Positions 3,225 through 32,000 of a DNA stretch of 32,000 bases are shown one piece after another; the stretch's first letter is position 1, and the number at the start of each line of letters is the position of its first letter. Source of the stretch: Ruminococcus albus 7 = DSM 20455 (lineage in GTDB: Bacteria; Bacillota; Clostridia; Oscillospirales; Ruminococcaceae); NCBI RefSeq assembly GCF_000179635.2, contig NC_014825.1, positions 120,001 through 152,000 of the forward strand, given 5' to 3'. The position numbers and the translations under genes were made by a program. The notes under the pieces were generated by a model, which was given only the letters and a program-made list of their open reading frames with translations, made no database searches and was not told the DNA's origin.

Positions 3225-3238
3225 GGAGCGCGGAATAA

Positions 3239-5794: not shown

Positions 5795-5835
5795 GCGGAG
5801 TACGAAACGAGGACAAGTATATTGCGATCAGATAC

Positions 5836-6684: not shown

Positions 6685-6695
6685 CCGGGCGCCGC

Positions 6696-6750
6696 GGCAT
6701 TTCACTTTCTTCGTTCGTCGCTACGCTCCTCACTACGAAAGTGAAATGCC
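6696..6750 (+). repeat. 14-bp perfect inverted repeat / stem-loop just 3' of orfB, inside the IS3 right arm
   Basis: GGCATTTCACTTTC (6696-6709) pairs with GAAAGTGAAATGCC (6737-6750), with a 27-nt loop. No T-tract follows, so the function is unclear. Confidence 0.5.
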
Positions 6751-6861
6751 AATTACTGCTAACAAATAGCAGCCTGCACATATTGCACAGACTGCTTTTG
6801 GTCACAACATAGAATATTTTTGTTTTTTACACTGTCTATTTGACAGGGGGCGGGTCAGTTA

Positions 6862-12025: not shown

Positions 12026-12120
12026 CAGAAATGCCGATGATATTTTATCGCTGAAATATTATTTAGCTTGCCTGTTTTATCTGCCCCACTCAAATACAAA
12101 AAATGTTAAGGGAGGCTGAT

Positions 12121-12744
12121 ATGTCAAATATCTTTCAGGACATAAAGGATAGGATCGACCTGAAAGACCTTGTAAGGTATTACGGTTTAAATGTTGACCG
12201 GGGCGGATTTGCTTGCTGCCCCTTTCACAACGAACGCAACCCTTCCTTTAAAGTCTATGAAGATCATTATCACTGTTTCGGGTGCGGTGCGCACGGGGAC
12301 CACACAGACTTTGTTGAGAAGCTCTACGGGGTATCGAACATTGAAGCTGCAAAAAAAATCAGTCACGACTTCGGGCTGGGGCTTTGCGACGGGGAAATAG
12401 CCATCCCCGCAAAACGCAAAAAGCTCCGACCCCCTAAAGATGAAGGATTTGAATTGTGGGTGAAAGAATCGGTACCTCTGCTGATTGAGTATAAAAAGCT
12501 GCTGCAATATTGGGGCAAAATCTACGACCCCCGCAGTCCGATAGATAAAGTTGATGAGCGGTATATTGAGAGCGTCCACAATCGCGGGTACGCAGAATAT
12601 TTCCTCGATCAGCTGCTCTACGGTACCGAGAACGAAAAACGTGCGATGTACGAAACGGACAGGGACTACCCTTTGACAGTAAAAATCCGGCTGGACAGTT
12701 TGGACACCGTCTGCCGGAATGCGTGTAAATCTAAAGCAATATAA
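12121..12744 (+). CDS. CHC2 zinc-finger (DnaG-type primase zinc-binding) domain protein, no Toprim domain
   Basis: GGGAGG lies 6-7 nt before the ATG at 12121. The CHC2 finger is CCPFHNERNPSFKVYEDHYHCFGCGAHGD. The protein is 207 aa. Confidence 0.8.
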   Translation: MSNIFQDIKDRIDLKDLVRYYGLNVDRGGFACCPFHNERNPSFKVYEDHYHCFGCGAHGDHTDFVEKLYGVSNIEAAKKISHDFGLGLCDGEIAIPAKRKKLRPPKDEGFELWVKESVPLLIEYKKLLQYWGKIYDPRSPIDKVDERYIESVHNRGYAEYFLDQLLYGTENEKRAMYETDRDYPLTVKIRLDSLDTVCRNACKSKAI

Positions 12745-15098: not shown

Positions 15099-16622
15099 AT
15101 GAACAACATGATAGTAGTACCTGCGGCTGCAAAGGTTCAGCGAGGGCTGACAAGGGTGGCAGCTTATTGCAGAGTATCCACAAGTCAGGAGAATCAGGAA
15201 CATTCTTATGAAGCGCAGGTGCGGTACTTCACCAACCTGTACCGCAGTTCATCGACCGAAACGTTTGTCGGTATCTATGCCGACGAGGGTATTTCGGGAA
15301 CGAGCCTTGACAAGCGCACCGAGTTTCAGAGAATGATAAACGACTGCCGTGCGGGAAAGATCGACCGCATAGTTACAAAATCGGTCAGCCGATTTGCCCG
15401 AAATACAAAGGACTGCCTTGAAACTCTTCGTGAGCTGAAAGCACTTGGAGTGACCGTGGCTTTCGAGAAAGAGAATATTGACACTTCAAGGCTCTCGGAC
15501 GAAATGATGATTACGGTCATGGGTGGTCTGGCTCAGGAGGAATCACATTCCATTTCAAGGAATGTCCGCTGGAGCATACAGCGTAAAATGGCAAACGGTA
15601 CTTTCCGACACGCAAGGGTGCCTTACGGTTATGCTAAAGACGATGAAACGGGAAATCTTATCGTTGACCCCGAACAGGCGGAGATCATTCGCAGGATATT
15701 CAATATGTATGTGAACGGCACGGGTGCGCACAAGATCGCCCTCACGCTCAATGATGAAAAGATACCCTCGCCTACGGGGATCGCGTGGAACAAGAAAACT
15801 ATACTGAAAATTCTTGACAACGAGAAGTACACTGGCGATACCATGTGGCAGAAAACCTACTCCGAGTTCATGGGAGAAAAGTTCAAGCCAAATCACGGGC
15901 AGGCGGCGAAATACTACATTGAGGGCAGTCACGAAGCTATTATCAGTAAGGAGCTTTTCGAGATGGCGGCTAAGGTGAAAAAGAAAGCCGCGCCCAAGAG
16001 CTTCGAGAAGAACAATACTCCGTTCAGGAAAAAGCTGATCTGCAGAAAATGCGGTCATACCTACACCTTTATTTCCTCTAAGCGTCGTAATTACTGGCAA
16101 TGTAACTGCCGAAGTGCAATAGATAAGCCTTGTGATAACAGAGTGCTGTATAATGATGAACTGGAATCCGCTTTCACGGCATTGTGTGACAAGCTCCATG
16201 TTCACGGTACCGTTATCCTCGGCAAGTGTGCCGAGCAGCTTGCGGAACTGCAAAGACTTGAACAGTTCGGAACGGCAGAGGGCGTTAAGCGAATGAAGGA
16301 GCTTTCCGACCTCAAAGACCAAAAGCAGCGGTTCAGGGGACTGTATGACAAGCACTTCATCTCGGAGGAAAAGTATCAGCAGCAGATAGGCGAGATAGAC
16401 CTAAAGATTGAAAGGCTGTCGCGGGAAATGTCGCGGCTGTCGGGAGCTAATGACGGAATTAGCGGCGAGATAAATACGCTGCTGGAGATGTTCGAGGATT
16501 ACGAAGGTTCTGACGATGATAAAAAGGAGATTATCGAATCGGCACTTGAAAAAATTACGTTTGTGGACGAAACGCTGACATTCCGCCTGCAATGCGGTCT
16601 TGAATTTACAGAGGTGGTGTAA
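15099..16622 (+). CDS. Large serine recombinase (resolvase catalytic domain + recombinase domain + zinc ribbon + coiled coil)
   Basis: 507 aa. It has VAAYCRVSTSQENQEHSYEAQ (catalytic Ser motif), VTKSVSRFARNT, PYGY, a C..C...C..C zinc ribbon (CRKCGH...WQCNC) and a C-terminal coiled coil. Confidence 0.92.
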   Translation: MNNMIVVPAAAKVQRGLTRVAAYCRVSTSQENQEHSYEAQVRYFTNLYRSSSTETFVGIYADEGISGTSLDKRTEFQRMINDCRAGKIDRIVTKSVSRFARNTKDCLETLRELKALGVTVAFEKENIDTSRLSDEMMITVMGGLAQEESHSISRNVRWSIQRKMANGTFRHARVPYGYAKDDETGNLIVDPEQAEIIRRIFNMYVNGTGAHKIALTLNDEKIPSPTGIAWNKKTILKILDNEKYTGDTMWQKTYSEFMGEKFKPNHGQAAKYYIEGSHEAIISKELFEMAAKVKKKAAPKSFEKNNTPFRKKLICRKCGHTYTFISSKRRNYWQCNCRSAIDKPCDNRVLYNDELESAFTALCDKLHVHGTVILGKCAEQLAELQRLEQFGTAEGVKRMKELSDLKDQKQRFRGLYDKHFISEEKYQQQIGEIDLKIERLSREMSRLSGANDGISGEINTLLEMFEDYEGSDDDKKEIIESALEKITFVDETLTFRLQCGLEFTEVV

Positions 16623-16624
16623 TT

Positions 16625-17500
16625 ATGGCAGTAAGAAAAACGCCGTATGGGTACATAATAGCGAACGGCAGAATCGCAGTCGATGCTGAGGAAGCAGAGG
16701 TCATCAAGCGTATCTTTTCCGATCGTATCAGCGGTCTTTCGGGCGTGAAGATAGGCGCGGCGCTCTTTGCCGAGCATATCGAGCCATTCACCGAAAGCGA
16801 GAAAAAAGCGGCTGACAGGATTTATTCCATTCTGAATGACGAACGATACTGCGGAGCTGACGACTATCCAACGATAATAAGCGAGGAAACCTTTGCCGCT
16901 TCAAGAGCCAGCATGAATAAAAAGACCTTTGGAAAAGAGCCTGACACCTACACTATACTCCGCAAGATGTCGTTCTGCTCCGAGTGCGGCAAGAACCTGG
17001 CACATTTCTCCGATCAGACAAGAGAGCTGCGTTGGCGCTGTACCAAAAAGGGCTGTATCAATTCCAAACCGAGAATAACAGATGTTGATTTCACAGCTTC
17101 GGTACTTGAAGTTCTGAACGCTGTCATTGAAACTCCCGAAATGCTTGACACGGGAGAACAGCTCACCGAATATGTTCCCGATGATAAAGTGGCAGCGATA
17201 GAAGCCGAATTGAAAGAACTGTTTGCGGCTGTCCCGATAGATCATGAGCGGGTCAAAGCCAAAGTGTATGAATTAGCAACAGCGAAGTACAACTGCTGCA
17301 CTTATAATCGCATACCTTATATAACAGAGGAACTTGTGCATATTATTCAAGGCTTTACGCCCTCGGAAGAGATCAACAAGCAAATGCTCACAAAGACTGT
17401 TGAGAAGATAACATTTGATAAAAACAAAGTGATAACCGTTACTTTCAAAAACGGCAGAAAAATAGCGGCAAAGGAGGGAGAAATATGTCAAGACCGATAG
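16625..17500 (+). CDS. Recombinase-domain protein lacking the N-terminal serine catalytic (resolvase) domain
   Basis: 291 aa. It starts directly at the recombinase-domain motif (KTPYGYIIANGRIAVDAEEAEVIKRIF) and has the zinc ribbon CSECGK...WRCTKKGC. There is no YxRVS/SR.(A)R catalytic motif. GAGGTGG lies 7 nt before the ATG. Confidence 0.8.
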   Translation: MAVRKTPYGYIIANGRIAVDAEEAEVIKRIFSDRISGLSGVKIGAALFAEHIEPFTESEKKAADRIYSILNDERYCGADDYPTIISEETFAASRASMNKKTFGKEPDTYTILRKMSFCSECGKNLAHFSDQTRELRWRCTKKGCINSKPRITDVDFTASVLEVLNAVIETPEMLDTGEQLTEYVPDDKVAAIEAELKELFAAVPIDHERVKAKVYELATAKYNCCTYNRIPYITEELVHIIQGFTPSEEINKQMLTKTVEKITFDKNKVITVTFKNGRKIAAKEGEICQDR

Positions 17501-19122
17501 AAGCGGCTTCAAACGTCAAGATAATTCCTGCAATGTCCTCGGAGGAGTTGAAACAGGCAAAGTACAGGCAGACGAGAGTCGCGGCTTACTGTAGAGTATC
17601 TACCGATCATGAGGAGCAGGCGAACAGTTACAAGGTGCAGATAGATTACTACACGAACCTCATAAATTCCAACTCCGAGTGGACAATGGCTGGTATCTAT
17701 GCTGACGAGGGTATCAGCGGAACGCAGACCAAGAACCGCAAGGAGTTCAACAAAATGATACGCAAGTGCCGGCAGAAAAAGATAGACCTTGTGCTCTGTA
17801 AGTCTATATCCCGTTTTGCCCGAAACACCGTGGACTGCCTTGAATATATCCGCGAGCTGCGCCTGCTGGGTATCGGCGTTATCTTTGAAAAAGAGAACAT
17901 AAACACCCTTGCTATGAACAGCGAGTTTATTATATCGCTGTACGGGTCGTTCGCTCAGGCGGAGTCGGAATCAATAAGCAAGAACGTTTCATGGGGAATA
18001 GAAAAATCTTTCAAGGAAGGGAAAGTAAAATATGTCATGGACAAGACCCTCGGATACCGCATGGGCGAGGACGGCAAGCCATACATTGTCGAGGAAGAAG
18101 CCGAGATCGTGCGGCGCATATATCGTATGTTCCTCGACGGTCTGAGTATGCAGAGGATAGCCGACATAATGCAGGCGGAGGGGGCTGCCCGAAGAAGCGG
18201 CTGCACTACATGGAACCGCAGCAACGTCAATTATATTCTCAAAAACGAGAAGTACGCGGGTGACGCTATCCTGCAAAAGAGCTATACGATTGACTGCATC
18301 ACTCACAAGCGGGTCAAAAACAACGGCGAGAAGAACAAGTACATTCTGCATGACTGTCACCCTGCGATAATCGACCGAGACACCTACAACCGCACTCAGC
18401 AAGAACTTACAAGGCGCTGTACGATAAAGCAGCGCAGCGATAAAGCCGTGACAGCTCAGGGGCGGTACGCCAGCAAGTATGCTCTGACCGACATAATGAT
18501 CTGCGGCGAGTGCGGCACACCTTACCGTCGCGTAGTGTGGAACTCTCATGGGAAAAAGCTGCCCGTCTGGAGATGTATCAACCGCCTTGATCACGGCAAC
18601 AGATACTGCAAGCATTCCCCGTCGCTAAATGAGGAACACTTACAGCAAGCGATAATTGATGCTATAAACACAGCATATACACATAATACGGCGTTTCTGC
18701 AAAGCATGGAGAACAATATTTCCATTGTTTTGAACGATGAGGACAAGAACAACACCGAACGGGTCAGAATAGAAAGCCGCCTTGCGGAGATAGACAAGGC
18801 TCGTGACGACCTGATACATCTTGTAACAAGCGGTTCGGTCGGAGAGGATTCTCTCGACAAGGAGTTTGAAGCCCTGAACGACGAGGAAAGCTACCTGAAA
18901 ACACAGCTTGAAGCTATGAAAAGTCAGACCGAGAAGCGTGATGAAGTACGGTACTCCATAATGTCGGCGGTCGAGGGCATTGGAGAAATGGAGAACACTA
19001 TGGTCGATTACGATGAAGTTGCGGTCAGGAAGATGATCGAGTGCATAAAGGTTTTGTCAAAGACCGAAATACTGATCATTTTCAAGGGCGGTTATGAATG
19101 TAATGCCGTTGTGGAAAAGTGA
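17485..19122 (+). CDS. Large serine recombinase
   Basis: 545 aa. It has VAAYCRVSTDHEEQANSYKVQ, CKSISRFARNT, GYRMGEDGKPYIVEEEAEIVRRIY, the zinc ribbon CGECG...WRC and a coiled-coil tail. It overlaps the previous gene by 16 nt. Confidence 0.92.
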   Translation: MSRPIEAASNVKIIPAMSSEELKQAKYRQTRVAAYCRVSTDHEEQANSYKVQIDYYTNLINSNSEWTMAGIYADEGISGTQTKNRKEFNKMIRKCRQKKIDLVLCKSISRFARNTVDCLEYIRELRLLGIGVIFEKENINTLAMNSEFIISLYGSFAQAESESISKNVSWGIEKSFKEGKVKYVMDKTLGYRMGEDGKPYIVEEEAEIVRRIYRMFLDGLSMQRIADIMQAEGAARRSGCTTWNRSNVNYILKNEKYAGDAILQKSYTIDCITHKRVKNNGEKNKYILHDCHPAIIDRDTYNRTQQELTRRCTIKQRSDKAVTAQGRYASKYALTDIMICGECGTPYRRVVWNSHGKKLPVWRCINRLDHGNRYCKHSPSLNEEHLQQAIIDAINTAYTHNTAFLQSMENNISIVLNDEDKNNTERVRIESRLAEIDKARDDLIHLVTSGSVGEDSLDKEFEALNDEESYLKTQLEAMKSQTEKRDEVRYSIMSAVEGIGEMENTMVDYDEVAVRKMIECIKVLSKTEILIIFKGGYECNAVVEK

Positions 19123-19129
19123 ATAATAA

Positions 19130-19168
19130 CAGCCTGCGTTCTTGCGTATCAGTAAGCGGCGCAGGCTG
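19130..19168 (+). terminator. Hairpin after the recombinase operon
   Basis: CAGCCTGCG (19130-19138) pairs with CGCAGGCTG (19160-19168), 8 nt after the stop. It is followed by only TTT, so this is a weak terminator. Confidence 0.5.
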
Positions 19169-19351
19169 TTTCCGTCTTAGGGCAAGTATACGGCACTTTT
19201 GATTTTTGGCATGACAAAAAACGTCCGAAAGCAGAGCCGTCAAACGTTCGTAAAACTCTCAATTTTGCACTTCAACCCGAAAAAAGTATGCAAATACACA
19301 GCTTTTTCAGGACTGATTTGACCACCCGTTTACGTTAAAGACAAAGAAATC

Positions 19352-20431
19352 TTACCAACTGAACATATCCATGCAAGCCCTTTTACGTTCAAAGTTGGAG
19401 TGAACATAAAGCCGCATTGTCAGTTCTACGCTGCTGTGTCCGAGTATCTCCGACAACGTTTTAACATCGAAGCCCAGCTCAATCGCTCTGCTTGCCCAGC
19501 CGTGGCGCAGGGCATGATAATGGATATGTGGCAGCCCCAGCTTCTTTAAAAGCCTTGAAAAACGGTACTGCATGGCTCTCGGCTCCATAGGCTTGTCCTT
19601 CCCGGTCAGCAGAAAACAGCCGTCATCAGCCTTGAATGACCGGAGCATTTCTATCATACATTCGGGGATAGGTATAATGCGGCGTGATTTCTCGCTTTTC
19701 GGCTCGCTGATAATGAGCTTGGTTTTGCCGCCGCCCTCATGGTTCTGTATGCGCTGCATGGTCTTTTTCACGGTCAGTGTGCGGTAATCAAGGTCGATGT
19801 CTGCCCATGTAAGAGCGCACAGCTCGCCTACACGAAGCCCGGTGTACATGGTGAGGGCAATACCCATGCCGGCAAGAGTGGGCTTTTCCGTTATGTACGA
19901 TTTCAGCTTGTTTTCCTCGTCCTTGGTGAGCAGACGCACCTCCTTCGACTGCTTCTTGGGCATTGTGATACCGTCAAATACGTTTTTAAAGCCGTATTCC
20001 CGTGCGGCATACTTGAACATCGACTTCATCAGCACAAGAATATCCGAAACATAGCGGCTTGAAAGCCCATTGCCGATCTTGGCGTTCATGAAGCCGTATA
20101 TCTCCTTGCTGCCGACAGCACAGCAGTTCATAGCTCCGAACGACGGTATTATGTGCTTTTTTAGCTTCAACCGATAGTTTTCAAGCGTGGATTCTTTGAC
20201 ACGATTCTGCACCGACAGCAGCCACTCTGCCGCAAGGGTGGCTATTGTCATTTTCGATGCCGGAATGTTCGGAACAGCGGAAAACTGCGTCAATTCGTGC
20301 TTTCTGCGAACTTCTTCCGCTGTCGCACCATAGTATGATTTGTACCTGCGCTTGCCGTTCTCGTCCTTGCCGAGGTAGACCCGCCCCTCGTATCGCCCGT
20401 CCTTGCGGGCATAGATGTTTAGTGTATTCAT
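19352..20431 (-). CDS. int: Tyrosine integrase, Tn916-Int-like, with an AP2/arm-type N-terminal DNA-binding domain; catalytic residues intact
   Basis: 359 aa. The N-terminus is YARKDGRYEGRVYLGKDENGKRRYKSYYGATAEE. The catalytic set is YTGLRVGE (Arg), SEPKSEKS (Lys), HALRH, LGHSS and RLYVHS (Tyr). Confidence 0.9.
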   Translation of the reverse strand: MNTLNIYARKDGRYEGRVYLGKDENGKRRYKSYYGATAEEVRRKHELTQFSAVPNIPASKMTIATLAAEWLLSVQNRVKESTLENYRLKLKKHIIPSFGAMNCCAVGSKEIYGFMNAKIGNGLSSRYVSDILVLMKSMFKYAAREYGFKNVFDGITMPKKQSKEVRLLTKDEENKLKSYITEKPTLAGMGIALTMYTGLRVGELCALTWADIDLDYRTLTVKKTMQRIQNHEGGGKTKLIISEPKSEKSRRIIPIPECMIEMLRSFKADDGCFLLTGKDKPMEPRAMQYRFSRLLKKLGLPHIHYHALRHGWASRAIELGFDVKTLSEILGHSSVELTMRLYVHSNFERKRACMDMFSW

Positions 20432-20526
20432 TTGTTTTTCTCCTTCAAAAATCCACTTAAATTGTCTGCTTTGTTAAAATAATAATTGTGTTTCCAATTT
20501 GTTAATCATTTTTGCTGTCTAAACTA

Positions 20527-20555
20527 TTGACTTTCCATGTGAAATTTGATATAAT
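20527..20555 (+). promoter_or_regulatory. Consensus promoter upstream of the tandem recombinase-like genes
   Basis: TTGACT (20527-20532), a 17-nt spacer, then TATAAT (20550-20555), in a very AT-rich 238-bp divergent intergenic region. Confidence 0.65.
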
Positions 20556-20669
20556 TTTATTAAGAACGATATGTATATAAGTCTATTTTCTACATAAAGT
20601 TATTCTATATTATATCATTTTTTGGTTGACTTTAAATTGAGAGCTTTATGAATGTTTTCGGAGGTGTGA

Positions 20670-21587
20670 ATGAGTATTGTCAAGGAACAAATACTGGTGA
20701 ACGATATGACAGTCTCCGATTTGTTTGAAGAATGGCTGGCAAGTAAAACAATAAGGTCGGATACAGCAAACAATTACAGGATCAAATACAGACGGTATCT
20801 TGAAAGAATACTTGGTGGCATCAAGGTCAACGACATCACGGCAGAAAAATGGAAGGAGCTTGAAACGGAAATTTCAAACGGCACTGATTCAAGGGGCGAT
20901 TCTCTTACGCTTACCGGTATCCGATCTTTGTTTCAGATGCTTCGTTCAATTTTCACTTACGGAACGAAAAACTATGGCTTGAACTACCCTATGGGAGAAA
21001 CCAATCTGCCGGAGGATAGGTATACCTCTGAGACTGTTTTTTCTCCGCACGAAGTAGAGATACTCAGAAAATCTGTCAAGCCGTACAAACCCGATCATCT
21101 TGGGATCATGCTCTGCATCTATACGGGAATACAGCTCGGCGAACTTTGCGGTGCCAAATGGGGCGACTTTGATACTGACGAAAGGGTGTTGAGGATTCGG
21201 CGTTCATTGGCAAGGGAGCATGATAAGGAAAATGATAACAAAACCGTTCTGAGGCTGACCGAATACGGAAACGAAAGAACCGCCCGAAATCTTCATATCC
21301 CCGACTGGATAAACGATCAGCTCATACTGCTGAAGCGTATACATGATGACAACGAAATGTTTATCCCAGGAAAAAGCGGAAGGTGTGAGCCTGTTATCTT
21401 TGTAAGCTACAGCTATACGGGATTTCTTGATAAAGCCGGCGTGAAATACAGATCGTTTACAGCCACACGGAACACATATATAAAGGTATCTGTTGAAAAC
21501 GGCATGAGCTCGGAAGAACTGAGCCTTCTGCTTGGCGATCCGAGCGAGGAGTACACAAGGAAAAAATACTATGATAAAGTGAAATGA
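20670..21587 (+). CDS. Tyrosine-recombinase-like protein with substituted catalytic residues (likely non-catalytic)
   Basis: 305 aa. GGAGG lies 5 nt before the ATG. It has a SAM-like core-binding N-domain. YTGIQLGE replaces YTGLRVGE (Arg to Gln), FTATRNTY replaces HALRH, and LGDPSE replaces LGHSS. Confidence 0.8.
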   Translation: MSIVKEQILVNDMTVSDLFEEWLASKTIRSDTANNYRIKYRRYLERILGGIKVNDITAEKWKELETEISNGTDSRGDSLTLTGIRSLFQMLRSIFTYGTKNYGLNYPMGETNLPEDRYTSETVFSPHEVEILRKSVKPYKPDHLGIMLCIYTGIQLGELCGAKWGDFDTDERVLRIRRSLAREHDKENDNKTVLRLTEYGNERTARNLHIPDWINDQLILLKRIHDDNEMFIPGKSGRCEPVIFVSYSYTGFLDKAGVKYRSFTATRNTYIKVSVENGMSSEELSLLLGDPSEEYTRKKYYDKVK

Positions 21588-21590
21588 TAA

Positions 21591-22535
21591 ATGGAAAATA
21601 AAGAAACGACCAATATGACATTTCGGGAACTGTTTGATAGATGGCACAAGGAACGAAGCGAATCGGTGACAGAGACCACAAGCAAGGTGTATCGTTCTTA
21701 CCTCAACAAATACATTCCCGATGATTTAAAGAATCGTTCGGTGAACAGCATCGACTTTGACGAATGGAAAAGTATAAAAAATGAAATGCTGAACGGCAAA
21801 GCTCCGAACGGTTCAAAGGTGGTGTCAAGCACCGCAAGAATGGCTCTCGGAGTTTATCACGCGGTATTTATATACGGAAAAAGAAATTTTGGTCTGAAAA
21901 ACCCTGCTGACGGAGAATCGATAAATTACAGAGATATACGTTCAATTACCGTGTTTACCGAAAAAGAGGTAAGAAAGCTGCGAAAGGCGGTAAAGCCTTA
22001 CGACGTGGTTCACCTCGGCATAATGCTTTGCCTGTACACGGGAGCTGAAGTAAACGAGATCTGTGCTGTCAGGTGGGGAGACTTAGACCTAAAAAATAAT
22101 CTTTTGAAAATACGCGGAGTGGTAGAAAAAATCAATAAAAGGTCAAAAAAGGAAAAGAATAATCTCATAGTTGTTGAAATCACCGAAAAAAAGAACAGTC
22201 GAGAGCTGCCGATACCCACATGGATAGCCGAACAGCTGAAAATAATGGAGCCTATGCACGACGATGATGAGAACTTTCTCACCGGCGAAGAGGGATGCGC
22301 ATATCCTATGACTTTTCGAGGTCAATATGTGGCTTTCGTCAAAGCTGCCAGAGTGCAGAAACGATCCATAAGTGCTCTGCGCCACACCTTTGCAATGACC
22401 TGTGTTAAGAAAAATGTCGAGGTCGGGACGCTGAGCGAGATGCTCGGGCATAAAAAGGTCAGTGATACGCTCAGAATGTATTACAGAAAGCAGATGACGG
22501 ATAAACGTGAGATAGTCGAAAATTTGTACGAATAG
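21591..22535 (+). CDS. Tyrosine-recombinase-like protein, paralogue of 20670-21587, Arg-I substituted
   Basis: 314 aa. HLGIMLCLYTGAEVNEICAVRWGDLD has Arg to Glu, and SALRHTF has the first His changed to Ser. LGHKK and RMYYRK are retained. It starts 4 nt after the previous stop. Confidence 0.8.
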   Translation: MENKETTNMTFRELFDRWHKERSESVTETTSKVYRSYLNKYIPDDLKNRSVNSIDFDEWKSIKNEMLNGKAPNGSKVVSSTARMALGVYHAVFIYGKRNFGLKNPADGESINYRDIRSITVFTEKEVRKLRKAVKPYDVVHLGIMLCLYTGAEVNEICAVRWGDLDLKNNLLKIRGVVEKINKRSKKEKNNLIVVEITEKKNSRELPIPTWIAEQLKIMEPMHDDDENFLTGEEGCAYPMTFRGQYVAFVKAARVQKRSISALRHTFAMTCVKKNVEVGTLSEMLGHKKVSDTLRMYYRKQMTDKREIVENLYE

Positions 22536-22624
22536 TGCTTTCTGTGACAGTTTTGAGAAACGCTGATGAAAGGCTTGAAACAATACATTAGAACCGGTTG
22601 AAAACTTTCGGGAAGTGTGATATA

Positions 22625-23530
22625 ATGAATAAAGCAAAAACGCCGAATGAACAACCTGATAATTTGGTTTATCTCAAAGAAACTCCTGCTGAAAGAACTT
22701 TGTTCGGATTTCTTACGATACTTATTGGACTTGGTATCTTCGGCTGTGTGGCTATCACCTTGGTCGGTATCAGCAGGTCGGGAAATATGAGTTTCTTCGC
22801 CAGAATGAAAAATACGGTCAGGTCATGGAATTCCGACTACTATGATATTCGGACAGACGCACCCGAAAAGGATACTATTATAATAGGTACACCATTGAGA
22901 AAGACCACACCTGATGTGCGTAGGATAACCGCCGATCTTCATGAGGACAGCAGCTGCGGCAGTTTTATGCCCGGTTCTTACGGAATGGCAAAGGTGTACA
23001 TTATCCCTCACAATAAAAATGCCGAACTTACGGTTGACCTTAGCTTCAATGTTTACGGTTTAGTGAAAACGGCGGACGGTCAATACATAAGGATTGATGA
23101 ATTGGAAAATGATCTTCCCGAACAGGAGAAATGCAGCAAGGCTGATAAGCTGCTTAACGGTCACATTCTTTTCTTCATGGAGAAGGAGAACGGTTACAGC
23201 GGCTTGCTGAAAGACGGGAGAATGACATACAACACAGCGGAACATCAGGAAGACCTGAACGCTAATGGAGAATACGAGGTCACGGTCTACTGGGTATGGG
23301 CTGAATACTTTGAGCAGCTTTCAAGTATAAATGCAGAGGGAGCGGTCATCAAGGATGTTTCTGAATCGGAAACGGTAAAAGAATACATAAACAGCCGCCC
23401 TGATGAGTTCTTTCTAAAGGGAGCGGGAGAAAGTGTATCGGAGATGCTGAACGACCAGTACGATAACGCAGACCTGCTCATTCATCAAAACATCGACGGA
23501 TACGGTTTTGAGATAATAGCAAATAACTGA
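22625..23530 (+). CDS. N-terminally anchored/secreted protein, family A member 1 (uncharacterised)
   Basis: A TM segment LFGFLTILIGLGIFGCVAITLVGI is followed by MSFFARMK. It is paralogous to the next gene (GHILFF, VYWVWAEYF, YDNADL motifs). The start is uncertain: ATG at 22625, or the TTG at 22598 used by the track. Confidence 0.7.
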   Translation: MNKAKTPNEQPDNLVYLKETPAERTLFGFLTILIGLGIFGCVAITLVGISRSGNMSFFARMKNTVRSWNSDYYDIRTDAPEKDTIIIGTPLRKTTPDVRRITADLHEDSSCGSFMPGSYGMAKVYIIPHNKNAELTVDLSFNVYGLVKTADGQYIRIDELENDLPEQEKCSKADKLLNGHILFFMEKENGYSGLLKDGRMTYNTAEHQEDLNANGEYEVTVYWVWAEYFEQLSSINAEGAVIKDVSESETVKEYINSRPDEFFLKGAGESVSEMLNDQYDNADLLIHQNIDGYGFEIIANN

Positions 23531-23548: not shown

Positions 23549-24640
23549 ATGAAAGATAACAATGATCTTACAACCAGTAACAAAATTGAAATAGCGGAAT
23601 CTGCTTCAGCCCATGCCGAAGTTCGCTTGGAGGAAGTGCGCTCTGAATACCAAAAGCGCAAAATAAAGCTGATGAAGATCAGCTGTATGGTGATTATAGT
23701 CAGCATTGTCCTTGTTTTTGCAACTCGAAGCTGGTTTACCATGTCGAGAGAGGTTGAGGGAACTGGGGCTAATATGACGGCTAACGATTTGGTATTTGAA
23801 ATAAAAACTGTCGGCTCAGTTTCTCCGAATGGCAATATTCTCGAATCATTGGGTTATAAAGATGGAACTCCAATAACAAGCGGAGCTACTTCCGCAAATG
23901 TTGGTGATATTAAATGGTTGCTTCAAGCCGACGATGATATGGCAGACGCAGGATTAAGACCTGGTACAAATGGAAATTTGAATTTTGTAATTCAGCCTGT
24001 GAATAATGACAGTTCAAAAAATCTTTCAATAAACTATAAAATCGAACTAACAGCTTATAGACTTTCTGACGATATGAAAGCACAGATAGCTGACGAAACA
24101 CAAAAAAAGCTAAATGGTCAAAATTATACAATGCCAACTGTTACAATCGATGATCTTATTCAATTATCTGATAATACTACCGATACTAATTATTCAAAAG
24201 CTATTGACTACATAAAAGGGCATATACTATTCTTTAAAAATGCTGATAATTCTGGCAGGGTATATTTTGGAGAAACGCAAACAATAACATTTAATTCGTC
24301 GGAAAATAAAGAAATACCATTACACTGGGTTTGGCCCGATACTTTGGGAAATATGGTTTTAACTGGTAATAACATCATTAATGTTTGTGCTGGAGATGAA
24401 AAAGCCGACCTTATAAGCCATATCCAGAATAATCCGGCACTCTATTTTTATTCAAATGATTTGGACGATGATATGTTAGAAAATGGAAAGATTAAATCAA
24501 ATGTTTTAGGAGACGATATTTCAGACTATTATCCAACGCTCAATTTGGCGTATAATGATGCTGATCAAGAGATTGGAGTTAATATTCAGTATATTATGAT
24601 CGAACTGATAGTTGATGGCGATGTTGTGGGTGCTGAATAA
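23549..24640 (+). CDS. N-terminally anchored/secreted protein, family A member 2, TasA/camelysin-like N-terminus
   Basis: AAAGAGGTGG lies 5-6 nt before the ATG at 23549. The TM segment ISCMVIIVSIVLVFA is followed by TRSWFTMSREVEGTGANMTANDLVFEI. It shares the motifs GHILFF, LHWVWPDT and YNDADQEIG with the upstream gene. Confidence 0.75.
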   Translation: MKDNNDLTTSNKIEIAESASAHAEVRLEEVRSEYQKRKIKLMKISCMVIIVSIVLVFATRSWFTMSREVEGTGANMTANDLVFEIKTVGSVSPNGNILESLGYKDGTPITSGATSANVGDIKWLLQADDDMADAGLRPGTNGNLNFVIQPVNNDSSKNLSINYKIELTAYRLSDDMKAQIADETQKKLNGQNYTMPTVTIDDLIQLSDNTTDTNYSKAIDYIKGHILFFKNADNSGRVYFGETQTITFNSSENKEIPLHWVWPDTLGNMVLTGNNIINVCAGDEKADLISHIQNNPALYFYSNDLDDDMLENGKIKSNVLGDDISDYYPTLNLAYNDADQEIGVNIQYIMIELIVDGDVVGAE

Positions 24641-24661: not shown

Positions 24662-25534
24662 ATGATGAAGATTAAAATAATTAATACAATAAAATCTTAT
24701 TATGAGAAGCTGTCTAAAAAACGTAAAATTCAGTTACTTGTGTCGATTTTATTAACAGTAATGATTGGCATATCGATTCCGGTTTTAGCTTGGTTTTCAA
24801 AGCAACGGAAAATGGCTGTTTTAACCAATATTAATGCTCCGTATACACTATATCTTAGTGCTGGTAATCAGGAAAGTATAGTGTATTTGGATATGTCTTC
24901 TATAGACGTTGGAACCCCTGGCAACAGAGTTACAACGCACAAGGATTATGTGTTTAGTGTTCAAGGTTCTTGGGATATTAATGAATATTATTTGCAACTT
25001 GCTCATACTACTAATATTCCGTTTAAGTATTCTGTTTACAGAGTCAATAATGACGATATATATTCAGTTTCTGAATATGAAGATCTATCAGATGTATTAA
25101 AGGGAACATCAGTTTCATATACAACTCATAGTAATGGAGAGGGTACTAGTCCGCAAACCATTTATTATACATTTAGAGCAAATGAGAATTATACATATAA
25201 CGACGCAGATAAACAATATGGTAAAGTGATGGATGCTTCTAATTATGTTAATCACGCAGGAGATCAATTGGCAGTAAAGAATTCATCAAATACATATTAC
25301 AGTCAAACATATGATGAAACCAATACTACAAGAGTTCAGAAAAACGCTGTTCCTTTGTATATGCAAGCGGGTCCAATCAAGAAAAATGCCGAAACCCCTA
25401 ATGGGCAAGATTTTTGCGATTACTATGTTTTAAGAGTTGATTGGTCTGATGCTCCAAGTCTTAGAAATGAAAAAGAAACAGATGAGATTTATATTACGGT
25501 TGTTTCTCCATCCGTGGTTAGAACAAGCGACTGA
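24662..25534 (+). CDS. N-terminally anchored/secreted protein (uncharacterised)
   Basis: AGGAGG lies 7 nt before the ATG. The TM segment LLVSILLTVMIGISIPVLAWF is followed by SKQRKMAVLTNINAPYTLYLSAG. The protein is 290 aa and Asn/Tyr/Ser-rich. Confidence 0.75.
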   Translation: MMKIKIINTIKSYYEKLSKKRKIQLLVSILLTVMIGISIPVLAWFSKQRKMAVLTNINAPYTLYLSAGNQESIVYLDMSSIDVGTPGNRVTTHKDYVFSVQGSWDINEYYLQLAHTTNIPFKYSVYRVNNDDIYSVSEYEDLSDVLKGTSVSYTTHSNGEGTSPQTIYYTFRANENYTYNDADKQYGKVMDASNYVNHAGDQLAVKNSSNTYYSQTYDETNTTRVQKNAVPLYMQAGPIKKNAETPNGQDFCDYYVLRVDWSDAPSLRNEKETDEIYITVVSPSVVRTSD

Positions 25535-25574: not shown

Positions 25575-26627
25575 ATGAAAAAACGAATCCTTAGATTTTT
25601 GAAGACATATTGGATAGTAATTTGGTTAGTATTGTCAGTGTTTGTGCTTGCTTCCATAACAACTTATGCTGCCTATGTTAGAACACAAAATGTTAAGCGC
25701 GTAATAAGCACGATGGGCGGAGCAGGCAATCGTTTTTCTTCCAATCGACTTGATGAACTTGAAACAGATAATGCTGCTCATGTATTTCGCTTAATTCCTG
25801 TTCCGGGTAACGTTCATGATGGTGGAATTGATAGAGCTTTGTCAATATGCAATTACCCTCAAGGATTTGAAGCGTCATATTATGAAACAACAATTTATTA
25901 TGATCTTAAAGTAGAATTGACAGATAATCAATCATTAGCTCCGGTTTTTGAAAATGAAGCTGCTGAGCTTTTGCGTTATTATGTTGAAGAAAGTGATGGA
26001 ACGAAACATTATTTTGAAAAAGACTCGGGAACAAATAGATTTTTTCTAACAATCGGTAATCAAGAATTGAAAGGCAAAAAAACCAGTACGAACACCTATA
26101 CGATTCATTTTCCTAATGTCAATACAGGAATATACATGGATTTCTTTGCAAAGCCCTTAATTCTTGATGGAAACCAAAAAAAATCTACTGATGATTTAAA
26201 ATCTCTCGGTGCAATTATAAGTGCAGTATCTGTAGATCAAAGTGAGGATACGAACTGGTCAGGAGCTTTAGTTGAACCTAGAGCTACCGGTAAAGCTGTT
26301 ACTGACTATGATGCTTTTAATTATGTTATTAGTGGAGCAGGAGCAGGAACAATAACATTGAAATGGAAAGCAGATATGTTGGAAATCAACACTCATTACA
26401 TGGATAATGAAGGCATATCTGCCGTAGTAGATGGTCCGGAAAATGGATATTATTCACTAAAATATAATGTTACAGCAAATCAAACTAAAAACAGATATTC
26501 ATTCCAAATGTATAAAAGCACTAATTCAAATTGGAGTAGTATAACTAATTTTTCTTCAATTGCAAATGATGATAATTCAAACGATCCTTTAATTATTTTT
26601 AACTTTACGGCTTCGACATCACCTTGA
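25575..26627 (+). CDS. N-terminally anchored/secreted protein (uncharacterised)
   Basis: GGGAGG lies 9 nt before the ATG. The TM segment YWIVIWLVLSVFVLASITTYAAY is followed by VRTQNVKRVISTMGG. The protein is 350 aa. Confidence 0.75.
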   Translation: MKKRILRFLKTYWIVIWLVLSVFVLASITTYAAYVRTQNVKRVISTMGGAGNRFSSNRLDELETDNAAHVFRLIPVPGNVHDGGIDRALSICNYPQGFEASYYETTIYYDLKVELTDNQSLAPVFENEAAELLRYYVEESDGTKHYFEKDSGTNRFFLTIGNQELKGKKTSTNTYTIHFPNVNTGIYMDFFAKPLILDGNQKKSTDDLKSLGAIISAVSVDQSEDTNWSGALVEPRATGKAVTDYDAFNYVISGAGAGTITLKWKADMLEINTHYMDNEGISAVVDGPENGYYSLKYNVTANQTKNRYSFQMYKSTNSNWSSITNFSSIANDDNSNDPLIIFNFTASTSP

Positions 26628-26703: not shown

Positions 26704-29700
26704 ATGAAAAACAAATCGAATAATAAGAGACGCTCGAATTTGTTTAAGCGTGTAGTGTGCCTTGTTTTGTCAGCTGCAATTCTTATATCAGATTCGTATA
26801 TCTTAACTGTTTTAGATGACATTGGAATAAATTTGCTTCCTGTTGTATATGCTGAGGAAACGAGAAACATTAGTACTATTAGTGAGTTGGTTCAGTATTC
26901 TAAAGAATATGATGCTTCTCATGCGAAAGATACTCTTAATATTTCTATTGCTTCCAATGGAGTTGGAACATATCAAACCTCTGATACACAGTATTCTTAT
27001 GACGAATTCATTAGTATTGGCAATAGTTCATCTAATGCATTTGAGGGAACAGTCAATATAACGGTTTTGGCTAGTTCTTATTTCAATTTTTCAAAACCAT
27101 TATTTGGATATATTAAGGATAGTGCGCAAGTAACAGTTTCAGGTGGAAGCAGTAGTGGGTATTTGGAGTTGAGAAGACCGATGACCTCAAACCTTATGCC
27201 AATTTTCGCCGAAAATGTTATTCATGATACAGATACTACAAAATATGACCCTGCTGATGAAAGTCAATATACTAATTGGAGAATTAGGATCAATTATTTT
27301 CATGAAGAAGGCGAAGCTTCGGTTGTCACTAACTTTCCAAGTGTAATTGGTCGTATTGATGATAACAGCAAATTAAGTCTTGATATTTTAAATGATGCTC
27401 AATATACAAATAATGGAGAAGAATATAAAGCTGATATTCAAGCGACAGCTTCCGGTGTAAACGCAGGATTGATTTGTGGCACATTGGGGGAGAATGCCGA
27501 AATTAAGGTATCAGTTGGCGGTTCAAACACCAATTTTTCTGTCACATCCGCAAGTGGAAATGCTGGTGGTTTGATCGGTGAAATGGAATCTGGCTCCAGA
27601 GTAATTCTTGATGGTTCAAACATAACAGGAGGTTCTAATAGAACTATAACGGCTTCAAATGGTTATGCAGGTGGTTTAGTTGGAAAAGCCACCAATGCTT
27701 CCATAGTATTTGACAACGGTTTTAACGTTAATGAACACATTAATGGCAAAAACGGTGCCGGAAGTATTGCCGGTTATTATATTAGTGGAAGCGGAACAAC
27801 ATTTGATCTTGATAAAGCACAGATTAGCTGTACAGTAACCTCAGCAAATGCCGGAGGTCTTTTTGGTGTGCTTGAAACATCAGGTGATTTTTCTTTGGCT
27901 GGAGCTAAAGATGCTGAAACAGGTGATGATTCTTATTCAATTTCTACAACTGTAGCAAATCAACCCCAAAATGCAGTTTATGGAGGATTGATTGGTTTAT
28001 ATAAAACAAGCGCACTTGTTAACACACTTACTATTGGCGAAATAGCTTTAACGACAAATGGTACTGGCAATTGTGCGGGATTAGTTGGGAAAATTGATGA
28101 CTCCAATCCTGCTTATATTACGGTTAATGGCTCTTCGGTTACAAATAACATTAAAAGCTCATTTTGCGGTGTTGTAAACAATGCCGGAAATGCAGGTCAT
28201 TTTTTGGATATAGGCGATTTTACGCTATCAGGTTCGTCTCATTCCGGTCTTGTAGGTACTATGAATTGTGGTGTTATTAGACTTACTGGAACTACTGATC
28301 TTTCAGGTACTACCAGCTCTGATGCTCAGCTTGTCAACAAGAGAGGAAATACCCTAATTTATGGAGTAGGCGATGGCAGCACAAGCGGTTGGCTTTTCAA
28401 ACGAGGAACCGCTGCCGCTGTTGATGATATTGGAAATTGGGGCGAAGTTGTTCGCGTTGCAAGTGATGGTTCAGGAGATGTTTTTGAGTTTGATTCTTCT
28501 GCGCATACTGTAACTGTGGCATCTTCAACGACTTCAATTTCAACACCAGCTCAGTTTATTGCTACTGCTGTAAATATGCAGATCAATCAGGGAGATCGTG
28601 GTGCTTTACAATTTGCTCAGGACTCAAATGATGATACTAAAACTGTATCTGATACTCTTCTCAGCAGTTTAACCACTATTTCTATATCAGGAACGATTAA
28701 TCTCGCAGGTACGGGAGTAATGGGATTAATGCGCGACGATGGCAAAAAAACCACTTTTTCCGGTAATACTGCAACTGAAACTGATGTTGCTTTTTCCGGA
28801 ACTATAAATGGTGGTGGAATTGTTAATCTTGCAATTGGTGAACCTTATGGAATAAGAGGAACATCTGCATTAACTACTAACGGCGATGGTAATGGTAGAC
28901 TTCATGGTCATGCTAAAGTAGGTTTACTTTCTGTATCTGATGATGCAACTATTTCGAGTCTTACGATTGGAGGAACAATTGATACTAAGGCTAGCATTGA
29001 AATGTACTTAGGAGGATTTGTCGGTCAATCGAAAGGTGATCTTTCTTTGACAAGTGTCACCAACACAATTAGAATAGATGGTAGCTTCAGTTCGGATAAA
29101 AGCCAGTATATTGGTGGAATGATTGGTGAAGTTGAAGGTAATGGGTCAGTTATCTCAATAAGTGGAAGTAATAAATCTGTTATTTCTTTAAATGGGCATA
29201 AAACGACCTATGCATCAAATGGAATAGGTTTTGTTGAAGACAATACAGTTACTGTAAGTTTCAGTGATTATACTTTAGGAAATACCAGTTCTACAAGTTC
29301 AGCAAGTTTATCTAATACTTCTGGTGCAGATTACGCAAGATGTGGTGGAATGATAGGTGTTATCAACGGTTCCACAAAGAATAAAACTGTCAATTTTAAT
29401 GATGTATCGATTTCCTACTATGATTTGAATTTAACAGCAAGTGAGTGTGCAGGTGGAGTTCTTGGGTATAAATGGGATAATACAGAGGTTAATATTGGTA
29501 ATACCGGAACGACAGGAATAGTTGTTTCTTACGGAGATGTTGATCAGACAGCTGTTAGTGCTGCTGGTTTGGTACACACCGCAACGGGGCATTGGGCTGT
29601 ATCAAAATTAAAAATTAATAACACTGACTTTGGTTTAATTAACACTACTAATTATGGTGTCCTTGTAAATAAAGGAGATGGACTTTTTATGGAAATAAAG

Positions 29701-32000
29701 AGTTCATCAGGTTCTAACAATGGATTTGACCTTAGTACAGGTAACACTGTAACAAACACAGGAAGTACTTTAACTGTTTATGATGAATTGGTTGCATACA
29801 GCGCTTCGGTTGATGATAGTGGGAATTCTAATGTGCTGAACAACGGTAATGGAGTTGTATCTATTCATACTGCTAGCGGAACTGTAGTTGGTGGTAAATA
29901 TTCAAATCAGATAACTTCTCCGAACAGTTTAAACAATAATAAATTCACAAGATATTATTATGATTTAGATGTTATTCGTGCAGCTGTTACATCGGGTTCA
30001 TACCCATCAGGCAGTACAACGGCTGAACAGAACGCATATAAACTGATGATGTGGAATCTTAAACAGTATGCCAGTTCCGGTATTCAGTCATATTTTACGT
30101 CTTCAAATAATGCAACAGAGCCCCTGACAGGTGATTTTGATTTATCAAAAGTATCTTATTATCCAATTAATAGAGCATCATCTGATGTTAGTATAGGTGC
30201 GGCTAGTTTTACTTTCAATAATAAGAATATAGAAGATTCTGTTGTTGCAGGAACTACCTACCGCTCAACAGTTAGTAATAATTCCCAGCATTATTTGATG
30301 CATTCCGGATTATTTAATAATGTTACTAGTAATTTAAGTATAGGTGATAATATCACATTGTCTGGTAGTATTGGTAAACATGAAAATGGGTCAGGTGCTA
30401 TAGTTACCGGCACTTTAGGCGGACTTACGGAAGGAACAACTTCGTTTTCCAATACAACAGGAAAGCTAATAACCTTAAACGGATTAACTGTCAATGCTGC
30501 TGATAACTATACTCCTGAAGGGGAATCGAGTGCGGTTACTACTTATAAACCGGTTCTGATAAACAGAATCAATAATCACGTTTCATTATCTCTTAATGGA
30601 GTAAAAACAGCTGCTAATAGCTATGTTGCTACTGGCGGCGGTGTTAATACTGCGGGTTCAAGTTTGATAGGAACGGTTGGTACAAGAGATGGAGATAATA
30701 AAGCCACCTCAGATTCAATCAGTTTAACATTTAATGATATAAGACTTGATGCGAGAACAGATTCAAACAAGAGTGTGGAGGCATTATCGGGTCTTTCAAC
30801 AGCCTATGGAACTACTCAAGGTGTATTTACAAGAGCTACTCTTTTAGAAGAGTTTATCTTTAATAACAATAGCGACTGTAAAGGAGTGTATAATTATAGA
30901 CTTTCCGAGGACTGGAATAGTTCCACAAAAGCAGCCATTCATAATGTAACTTACGGTTATGAAATAACCGGAACAAGTGAATTTGTAGGTATGCAGGATC
31001 ACTATGTAGACTTGCTGGGAAAGACTGACCCAACATCGTATGATAATACACAAGATGAAACAGAATATAGTTTTGCTGACTTTCTTCCTTATGTAGCTGT
31101 TCGAAATTATTCTGAGGCAAGTGATACACAGCGTTCAAGAGAAATAATGGTCAATCACACCAATGTTAGTATTACTGACGGCTGTGGCACGTATAATGAT
31201 CCTTATATAATTGATACTAATGGTCAGATAGAAGTTATTGCAAAGATTTTGGAACAAGGCGAAGTTAGTGATGGTTTTACTATCAATGTTCCTAATATTA
31301 CTGCTGTTTCGGGCACCAATTTCACTTATGAAACTTGGCATACCAACGATCACATTCTCTTAACGTTCAATAACGGCACCTATAAAGCGAGTACTGCAAC
31401 ATATAATCATACTACGGCACAGCTTGCAAAGTATCTTGCTGGTGCATATTATAAGATCACCAAGGTTGAAAAAGAGGGTGAAGATGATACTGTAACTTAT
31501 GAGAGTATTACAATAAGCAGCGCTTCGTTTAATGGTCTTGGCGGTACCTCTAATGAGTATGCTTTTCATGGCGTAATAGTAGGAGATACTGATACTGCAA
31601 CATATCCTCTTGTCAATAATACCGGTTCTCCGCTTATCAAAACAAGCCATGGTAGTGTTGTGAAAGATTTGAATATTAATGTCAGAAATGAGAATATCTC
31701 TAGAACACAGGAAAACAATACTCAGAAATTCGTAATTAGTGGTGGCTGCTCTAACTACGGAGCTGTTATCGGTCAGATTCTTGGTGGAGATAATATCATA
31801 GATAATGTTGCTGTAGATTTTACAGATTCAACCATTAAAGTTGAAGGTTCATCTGCAAATGTTATTCCGGTAGGCGGATATGTTGGTGTTGTAGCCAGCG
31901 GTGCCCTGATTTTCAGAGGAATGAACGGTAAAAACCATGCCGGACTTACAACAGGCATTGTTAAGGACGGTACAACAAGTATAGCTATGGATAGCACTGA
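26704..32000 (+). CDS. Giant secreted repeat protein (5' part; at least 1765 codons, runs off the window) with GLUG-like GG[LMFV][IVL]G repeats; putative surface adhesin/fibre
   Basis: It is not in the supplied ORF track. AAGGAAGG lies 9 nt before the ATG at 26704. I read every codon of this frame to 32000 and found no stop. The signal peptide is MKNKSNNKRRSNLFKRVVCLVLSAAILI...VVYA-EE. The repeats include AGGLIGE, AGGLVGK, AGGLFGV, YGGLIGL, CAGLVGK, SGLVGT, LGGFVGQ, IGGMIGE, CGGMIGV, AGGVLGY and VGGYVGV. A GCGTYNDPYIIDT module start lies near 31180. Confidence 0.9.
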   Translation, partial: MKNKSNNKRRSNLFKRVVCLVLSAAILISDSYILTVLDDIGINLLPVVYAEETRNISTISELVQYSKEYDASHAKDTLNISIASNGVGTYQTSDTQYSYDEFISIGNSSSNAFEGTVNITVLASSYFNFSKPLFGYIKDSAQVTVSGGSSSGYLELRRPMTSNLMPIFAENVIHDTDTTKYDPADESQYTNWRIRINYFHEEGEASVVTNFPSVIGRIDDNSKLSLDILNDAQYTNNGEEYKADIQATASGVNAGLICGTLGENAEIKVSVGGSNTNFSVTSASGNAGGLIGEMESGSRVILDGSNITGGSNRTITASNGYAGGLVGKATNASIVFDNGFNVNEHINGKNGAGSIAGYYISGSGTTFDLDKAQISCTVTSANAGGLFGVLETSGDFSLAGAKDAETGDDSYSISTTVANQPQNAVYGGLIGLYKTSALVNTLTIGEIALTTNGTGNCAGLVGKIDDSNPAYITVNGSSVTNNIKSSFCGVVNNAGNAGHFLDIGDFTLSGSSHSGLVGTMNCGVIRLTGTTDLSGTTSSDAQLVNKRGNTLIYGVGDGSTSGWLFKRGTAAAVDDIGNWGEVVRVASDGSGDVFEFDSSAHTVTVASSTTSISTPAQFIATAVNMQINQGDRGALQFAQDSNDDTKTVSDTLLSSLTTISISGTINLAGTGVMGLMRDDGKKTTFSGNTATETDVAFSGTINGGGIVNLAIGEPYGIRGTSALTTNGDGNGRLHGHAKVGLLSVSDDATISSLTIGGTIDTKASIEMYLGGFVGQSKGDLSLTSVTNTIRIDGSFSSDKSQYIGGMIGEVEGNGSVISISGSNKSVISLNGHKTTYASNGIGFVEDNTVTVSFSDYTLGNTSSTSSASLSNTSGADYARCGGMIGVINGSTKNKTVNFNDVSISYYDLNLTASECAGGVLGYKWDNTEVNIGNTGTTGIVVSYGDVDQTAVSAAGLVHTATGHWAVSKLKINNTDFGLINTTNYGVLVNKGDGLFMEIKSSSGSNNGFDLSTGNTVTNTGSTLTVYDELVAYSASVDDSGNSNVLNNGNGVVSIHTASGTVVGGKYSNQITSPNSLNNNKFTRYYYDLDVIRAAVTSGSYPSGSTTAEQNAYKLMMWNLKQYASSGIQSYFTSSNNATEPLTGDFDLSKVSYYPINRASSDVSIGAASFTFNNKNIEDSVVAGTTYRSTVSNNSQHYLMHSGLFNNVTSNLSIGDNITLSGSIGKHENGSGAIVTGTLGGLTEGTTSFSNTTGKLITLNGLTVNAADNYTPEGESSAVTTYKPVLINRINNHVSLSLNGVKTAANSYVATGGGVNTAGSSLIGTVGTRDGDNKATSDSISLTFNDIRLDARTDSNKSVEALSGLSTAYGTTQGVFTRATLLEEFIFNNNSDCKGVYNYRLSEDWNSSTKAAIHNVTYGYEITGTSEFVGMQDHYVDLLGKTDPTSYDNTQDETEYSFADFLPYVAVRNYSEASDTQRSREIMVNHTNVSITDGCGTYNDPYIIDTNGQIEVIAKILEQGEVSDGFTINVPNITAVSGTNFTYETWHTNDHILLTFNNGTYKASTATYNHTTAQLAKYLAGAYYKITKVEKEGEDDTVTYESITISSASFNGLGGTSNEYAFHGVIVGDTDTATYPLVNNTGSPLIKTSHGSVVKDLNINVRNENISRTQENNTQKFVISGGCSNYGAVIGQILGGDNIIDNVAVDFTDSTIKVEGSSANVIPVGGYVGVVASGALIFRGMNGKNHAGLTTGIVKDGTTSIAMDST

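Follow-up and report, generated by a model that had tools for sequence, protein, structure and literature searches.

Inverted repeats and genes at the locus

The 32,000-nucleotide (nt) stretch of Ruminococcus albus 7 analysed here, referred to as the window, contains three genes of the tyrosine-recombinase (integrase) family at the head of a long operon for putative surface proteins. The gene int lies on the minus strand, and two tandem open reading frames (ORFs), A and B, diverge from it as the first genes of the operon (Table 1). The window is identical to R. albus contig JHYT01000046.1 (GCA_000621285.1), and the strain 7 proteins ADU24251 to ADU24254 are encoded here, on a 352,646-bp replicon. 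The three ORFs of the initial annotation of the window are all confirmed; that annotation had, however, missed that int and the operon promoter are enclosed by a pair of inverted repeats. This enclosure changes what the integrase appears to be there for.

Table 1. Coordinates of the features in the window.
Feature	Position	Strand	Description
IR-L	19242..19265		left inverted repeat, AAACGTTCGTAAAACTCTCAATTT
int	19352..20431	minus	359 amino acids (aa), tyrosine recombinase with the complete catalytic set (R, K, H, R, H, Y); putative invertase
Candidate int promoter	20476..20505	minus	TTAACA-N18-TATTTT, from consensus match
Operon promoter	20527..20555	plus	TTGACT-N17-(TG)TATAAT, inside the segment, facing A
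IR-R	20634..20657		right inverted repeat, AAATTGAGAGCTTTATGAATGTTT; its end is 12 nt short of the A start codon
Putative invertible segment	19242..20657		1416 bp, comprising IR-L, int, divergent promoters and IR-R
ORF A	20670..21587	plus	305 aa, recombinase fold, no arm domain
ORF B	21591..22535	plus	314 aa, recombinase fold, no arm domain
Four small-protein genes	22625-23530, 23549-24640, 24662-25534, 25575-26627	plus	predicted membrane-anchored or secreted proteins
Giant-protein gene	26704..32000	plus	N-terminal 1765 aa in the window; the gene leaves the window

The two 24-nt repeats match at 21 of the 24 positions and share the 10-nt run CTCTCAATTT. IR-L can be read as a core-type site with the outer half-site TTCGTAAAA, the spacer CTCTCAA and the inner half-site TTTTGC(AC). 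The 19-nt core of the repeat is present in the window in exactly two copies, in inverted orientation, against an expectation of 0.03. When the best 24-mer inverted repeat was compared with those of 200 dinucleotide shuffles in each of five lineages, no shuffle reached the observed repeat in four of them, and a single one did (1/200) in the lineage L037 (related loci and contigs are denoted here by L numbers).

In every other locus with Int, one arm of an inverted repeat lies about 75-110 nt beyond the int stop codon and the other immediately in front of the first operon gene. The repeats therefore occupy homologous positions in at least five diverged lineages, and their sequences differ in such a way that both arms change together: TTCGTAAAA-CTCTCAA-TTT in the window, L011 and L030; a repeat with the spacer CTCCTGA in L036; GTTCGTAAAA-CTCCTTA-TTTTACG in L034 and L039, with 24/24 matching positions; and TTCGCAAAAT-GCCGT-ATTT in L033. 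Each arm is composed of two inverted half-sites flanking an asymmetric spacer, which is the core-site layout of tyrosine recombinases, as in lox, FRT and dif. Strand exchange by Cre, Flp, Xer and lambda Int requires identical spacers in the partner sites, and the co-variation of the spacers in both arms is typical of such partner sites. Since repeats with co-varying spacers surround int and a promoter, the segment resembles an invertible promoter with the gene for its invertase built in. The locus combines flanking repeats with a matching overlap, a promoter between them and a catalytically complete recombinase, and judging from these sequence features it is probably an inverton.

The operon promoter has a consensus score of 11/12 and a TG extension, and no credible terminator was found between A, B and the next gene, in agreement with the initial annotation on both points. 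An equivalent TTGACA-N17-TGnTATAAT element faces the operon in L011, L030, L033, L034, L026, L036, L037 and L039, and an operon-facing consensus promoter lies within the segment in all lineages. The candidate int promoter is placed back to back with it, and this block is conserved across lineages. On the minus strand at 20609-20636, just inside IR-R, a conserved extended -10 element (TGATATAAT) faces the operon promoter at a distance of about 50 nt; the two may be convergent, interfering promoters, or the element may contribute to int expression. The 5' untranslated region of A has no unusual RNA structure (z-score 0.93).

Int itself matches Pfam PF00589 with 94.6 bits as well as the SAM-like core-binding domain PF14659. 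Family alignments place R, K, H, R, H and Y in the six catalytic columns (R-I, Lys, H-I, R-II, H-II and Tyr, where R and H denote the successive catalytic arginines and histidines), so that the full signature ascribed to this protein earlier is borne out. The arm-type N-terminus proposed along with it corresponds to a weak match to PF14657 (E 0.052). The ratio of nonsynonymous to synonymous substitution rates (dN/dS) of about 0.09 indicates strong purifying selection. The closest resemblance of Int is to Tn1549-type integrases; no relatives were found in IMG/VR, and the PLSDB plasmids gave no match.

Proteins A and B

Both A and B match PF14659, in accordance with the core-binding domain annotated for them, and the PHROG family phrog_1 (116 bits for A and 142 bits for B). 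The catalytic domain PF00589 is matched by B with 51.6 bits and by A with 24.9 bits, the latter under the cut-off of 27.1 bits. To place A structurally, an AlphaFold model was built from 11 family members, with a predicted local distance difference test score (pLDDT) of 82.8. Foldseek searches with this model returned Tn1549 Int (E 3.7e-10), XerA, lambda Int, XerH and IntI, and also two phage repressors with E-values of 1e-5 to 5e-4, SroF of phi3T (9rd5, 9rgl) and MrpR/YopR of SPbeta (8a0a, 8bj6). A phmmer search of the PDB sequences returned XerA, lambda Int and Tn1549 Int, and did not return 8a0a, 8bj6 or 9rd5. A is clearly a true integrase homologue despite its sub-cut-off Pfam score.

The catalytic substitutions noted in the initial annotation are confirmed by HMMER alignment to XerA (5hxy) and by family alignments, and they are conserved across the families. 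In the XerA alignment, YTGIQLGE of A and YTGAEVNE of B fall on YTGVRVGE, and SALRH of B falls on HVLRH. The six catalytic columns read Q, G, T, R, D and Y in A, and E, T, S, R, H and Y in B. For the segment FTATRNTY of A, which had been read as replacing HxLRH, the loss of the histidines stands, including that of the LGH motif, and the reading can be made more precise in that R-II (in ATRNT) and the tyrosine are kept. The R-I position is occupied by Q, T or S in 10/10 relatives of the A family, and by E or D in 11 of the 12 proteins of the B family, the remaining one having S. H-I is never a histidine in either family, and R-II is almost always retained. The LGH histidine and the tyrosine are present in all members of the B family, and the tyrosine in most, not all, members of the A family. 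In the A protein of Ruminococcaceae bacterium FB2012, R-II has changed to K and the tyrosine is lost as well, and the gene is still kept.

A profile of A and B together, searched against 1.84 billion representative proteins, delineates a compact clade that comprises about 20 clusters when proteins are grouped at 50% identity (197-480 bits). All of these clusters are without R-I, H-I and the N-terminal arm domain, and several are without the tyrosine; canonical integrases with R, K, H, R, H and Y follow at lower scores. In a scan of genome contigs with B, only generic integrases of about 26% identity were found. A and B thus have the fold of tyrosine recombinases and lack the full catalytic set, and on these alignments we consider them very probably non-catalytic. 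Int scores 184 bits against the A/B profile, within the plateau of many canonical integrases. A direct descent of A and B from the Int of the window, which we considered, is therefore unsupported: the profile scores place the two proteins in the same integrase subfamily as Int, and a duplication from Int itself is not demonstrable.

The dN/dS values are 0.18-0.23 for A and 0.12-0.24 for B in three lineages (dS about 0.4-0.7), and the catalytic losses are common to every orthologue found, at 43-87% identity. In every context recovered, down to the 43% identity of strain FB2012, the genes occur in the order A, B, three or four small proteins and the giant protein. Their spacing in the relatives is tight, A and B being 3-33 nt apart and the next gene following B after 9-89 nt. 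In one contig, L018 (from SRR059974), both A and the second small-protein gene are broken into two ORFs; because a neighbouring gene is affected along with A, we attribute this to probable sequencing frameshifts rather than decay.

The association with Int is less strict. L036 and L037 are devoid of A and B but carry Int together with the repeats, the promoter and the genes for the small proteins and the giant protein; their Int proteins fall in the same 90% identity cluster as that of the window. Conversely, L026-L029 keep A, B, IR-R and the promoter with an Int truncated to its first 34 codons, and L015 (strain FB2012) keeps A and B in the absence of Int and of the repeat. The linkage of A and B with the operon, one part of the synteny to be expected from the initial annotation, is therefore maintained, whereas the full trio is incomplete in these loci. 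By the same distribution, A and B are not obligate partners of Int. A and B are accessory to the switch.

A putative switch, alternative explanations and the neighbourhood

We propose, with a probability of roughly 55%, that the locus is a self-contained invertible-promoter switch which, together with A and B as regulators, controls a surface-protein operon of R. albus. Int would flip the 1.4-kb segment at the 24-nt inverted core-type sites. In the orientation seen, the promoter would drive A, B, the four small envelope proteins and the protein of about 3400 aa, and in the flipped orientation it would point away from the operon. Since A and B are the first two genes of the switched operon, they would be made only in the ON state. 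The pair would then act as non-catalytic DNA-binding regulators, most likely by tuning transcription of the operon, and might also occupy Int-type core sites, thereby biasing or locking the switch.

The recruitment of A and B as DNA-binding regulators had been put forward in the initial annotation, and by analogy with MrpR and SroF we find it plausible and somewhat favoured. Feedback of the pair on the switch is a more tentative part of the proposal. In its specific form, A and B would be an orientation-dependent module that occupies the core sites of Int or poisons Int tetramers, so that the ON state becomes heritable; we hold this for rather unlikely. Such locking would explain the uniform ON orientation in the assemblies. 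It is made less likely by the loci devoid of A and B, which are ON as well, and by those in which A and B occur with no functional Int. To our knowledge, dominant-negative control of an inverton by pseudo-recombinases has not been described.

Several observations weigh against the proposed switch. In all of about 40 contigs with Int, A or B, which represent at least 10 independent lineages or samples, the promoter points towards the operon. Scans with a junction pattern designed to match both orientations gave no hit in viral contigs and one in metagenome contigs, again in the native orientation. Contig L038, which at 1408 bp is near the size of the segment, has no break at IR-L and no sign of mixed orientation. 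Since assemblies report the majority orientation only, this uniformity does not refute inversion; we infer from the sites that inversion occurs, and if real it must be strongly biased. In L037, moreover, the spacers of the two arms differ by one base. No candidate operator for A and B was found, and outside the repeats the window shows no enrichment of the half-site motif. The absence of A and B from L036 and L037 means that the switch and the operon do not need them, and their persistence beside a truncated or missing Int counts against a role dependent on Int only. Finally, the downstream proteins are without recognisable family or fold: the four small proteins match no Pfam or NCBIfam family, and the AlphaFold model of the second one (pLDDT 74) has no significant fold match in the PDB (best E 0.026). 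The designation as a surface operon is drawn only from the predicted N-terminal membrane helices and the size of the proteins.

The loci in which A and B survive the loss of the local Int favour a function that is not confined to assisting Int, and they lend themselves to a narrower explanation, in which A and B are MrpR-like transcription factors for the operon or for other promoters only and the Int cassette is a separate layer of control. The persistence of A in FB2012 despite the further loss of R-II and the tyrosine agrees with it, as does the structural precedent of MrpR and SroF. On the other hand, no operator motif was identified, A and B always directly follow IR-R where they are present alongside the switch, and they are dispensable in L036 and L037; we regard this explanation as possible, with a probability well below even. 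More doubtful is the notion of a fixed promoter flanked by repeats that do not serve recombination, in which Int would be an integrase, either active or left over, from a mobile element, or would use the two sites for autoregulation or looping only. The invariant orientation, a neighbourhood rich in mobile-element genes and the closeness of Int to Tn1549-type integrases would all be accounted for. However, the two arms share their changes in the asymmetric spacer in five lineages, which is not required of simple operators, and Int maintains its full catalytic set under strong purifying selection. In addition, inverted sites give inversion rather than excision, and the window holds no third copy of the site.

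It is very unlikely that A or B is still catalytic, for example B as an obligatory co-recombinase that donates its tyrosine, R-II and H-II in a mixed tetramer with Int, in the manner of XerC/XerD or of TnpA/TnpB of Tn554. Although B keeps R-II, the histidine following it, the LGH histidine and the tyrosine in all members, and A keeps R-II and the tyrosine in most, R-I is absent from every member of both families, and in B this position is acidic. R-I is known to be essential (R173 in Cre, R212 in lambda Int and R148 in XerD). Besides, Int cassettes are found in loci that have no A and B, and A and B in loci that have no functional Int. XerC/XerD-type pairs do not fit the locus either. We also rejected the idea that A and B are decaying pseudogenes derived from integrase duplications, to which we assign a negligible probability. 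The score of A under the Pfam cut-off and the split of A in L018 would be in line with decay, but all lineages, at identities of 43% to 87%, have full-length ORFs, the substitutions follow a conserved pattern instead of a random one, and the linkage to the downstream operon is kept. With dN/dS values of 0.12-0.24, A and B are not pseudogenes, and the decay that the initial annotation had named as a possible refutation is not what the genes display.

Regarding the operon itself, the giant protein comprises 3425 aa in the source contig. The four small proteins share an N-terminal membrane helix followed by an invariant Trp-Phe pair (W62 and F63 in the family alignment), and the first two have in common a GHILFF...WVW motif, which may resemble SipW/TasA-type signal peptides. 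The set varies in number, as in L039 and L034 only three such genes separate B from the giant gene. A conserved TTGAAA-N17-TGnTATAAT element at 22598-22627, the -10 of which overlaps the annotated ATG of the first small protein, is shared by L036 and L037, which have no A and B; it may represent a promoter internal to the operon, or else the annotated start may be wrong.

To the left of the segment, three tandem serine-recombinase genes occupy 15099-19122 (507 aa; 291 aa, with the Recombinase domain only; and 545 aa), the third having a dN/dS of about 0.03-0.05. They are preceded by a relaxase/MobC pair (9860-11577, minus strand), a primase zinc-ribbon gene (12103-12744) and an HU-like gene, and together these genes are the backbone of a mobilisable element. 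L011, L030 and L036 have the serine-recombinase trio beside the switch as well, and L037 retains a piece of the 3' end of the trio. In several relatives (L030, L035, L036 and L037), a YhcG/DUF1016 nuclease-like gene is inserted, at the equivalent of about 19156-19169 in the window, between the terminator hairpin of the serine recombinases (19129-19169) and IR-L, and about 86 nt to the left of IR-L stay conserved. A cluster of insertion-sequence (IS) genes at 191-7263 comprises an IS66 transposase, two IstB (IS21) ATPase genes and an IS3-type pair of helix-turn-helix and rve genes.

Comparison with known systems

Clusters of several tyrosine-recombinase genes are known from RIT elements and from TnpA/TnpB of Tn554, and in this respect the locus is similar to them. 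RIT trios consist of three co-oriented, catalytically intact tyrosine recombinases within terminal inverted repeats. Here, in contrast, one intact gene is divergent from two degenerate ones, and the repeats enclose int only. Membership in the RIT elements, as they are generally defined, was rejected on these grounds. The sole NCBIfam match to a recombinase trio, GmtY, is negligible (E 0.0034, 16.7 bits against a cut-off of 340).

In the H-segment of Salmonella, inverted repeats bound a recombinase gene and an outward promoter for a surface-structure operon, whose early products include the regulator FljA. Hin is the example of an invertase encoded within its own segment (PMC5903667). The R. 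albus locus is alike in that repeats bound a segment holding a recombinase and an outward promoter, and in that the first products of the operon include putative regulators. It differs from Hin, a serine recombinase dependent on Fis and an enhancer, in its tyrosine recombinase with a probable arm-type N-terminus, in that the co-transcribed putative regulators are recombinase paralogues, and in that the inversion is, for R. albus, one that we infer.

The closest functional analogues of the switch are fimS with FimB/FimE and the invertons of gut bacteria, which likewise combine a tyrosine recombinase, short inverted repeats, a promoter with ON and OFF states for a surface structure and recombinase paralogues at the locus. 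As in the flanks of the fimS repeats, the left and right arms differ here in a conserved way. The fimS switch is 314 bp long, and FimB and FimE, both catalytically active, are encoded outside it; in R. albus the recombinase gene is contained in the segment, which measures 1.4 kb, and the two additional paralogues are predicted to be dead. The invertases of gut invertons lie outside the inverton and are reported to be generally free of its control (PMC11892184).

For A and B, a direct precedent for the recruitment suggested in the initial annotation is MrpR, which has the recombinase fold, has lost R-I, H-I and the H/W residue, keeps the lysine and the tyrosine, is devoid of recombination activity and represses via repeated operators (PMC10516654). 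A and B resemble MrpR/YopR of SPbeta and SroF of phi3T in the recombinase fold, matched at the fold level by the model of A, and in the loss of catalytic arginine and histidine residues with the tyrosine kept. They differ in having no detectable sequence kinship with these repressors and in being much nearer to Tn1549-type and XerA-type integrases, and the recruitment therefore looks like an independent one. In addition, A and B are in tandem within a bacterial surface-protein operon behind a switch rather than in a phage lysogeny module, and their DNA binding is predicted.

If the proposal is true, the locus would be a tyrosine-recombinase counterpart of Hin, with an invertase that rides inside its own 1.4-kb inverton. 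Standard inverton finders seek short segments and would tend to miss one of this length. The switch would control a very large, uncharacterised envelope-protein operon in a major fibre degrader of the rumen, where adhesion to plant material matters. The small, coherent clade of pseudo-recombinases lacking R-I would be a second, independent case of a recombinase fold turned regulator beside MrpR and SroF, and the locus would offer a natural system for asking whether dead paralogues gate a DNA switch. The statement in the initial annotation that no such system had been described was too strong, since recombinase-fold repressors (MrpR/YopR, PMC10516654; SroF, PDB 9rd5) and Hin-type invertible promoters are both known. 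The locus is best regarded as the combination of an inverton with regulators of recombinase fold, two kinds of elements that are individually known.

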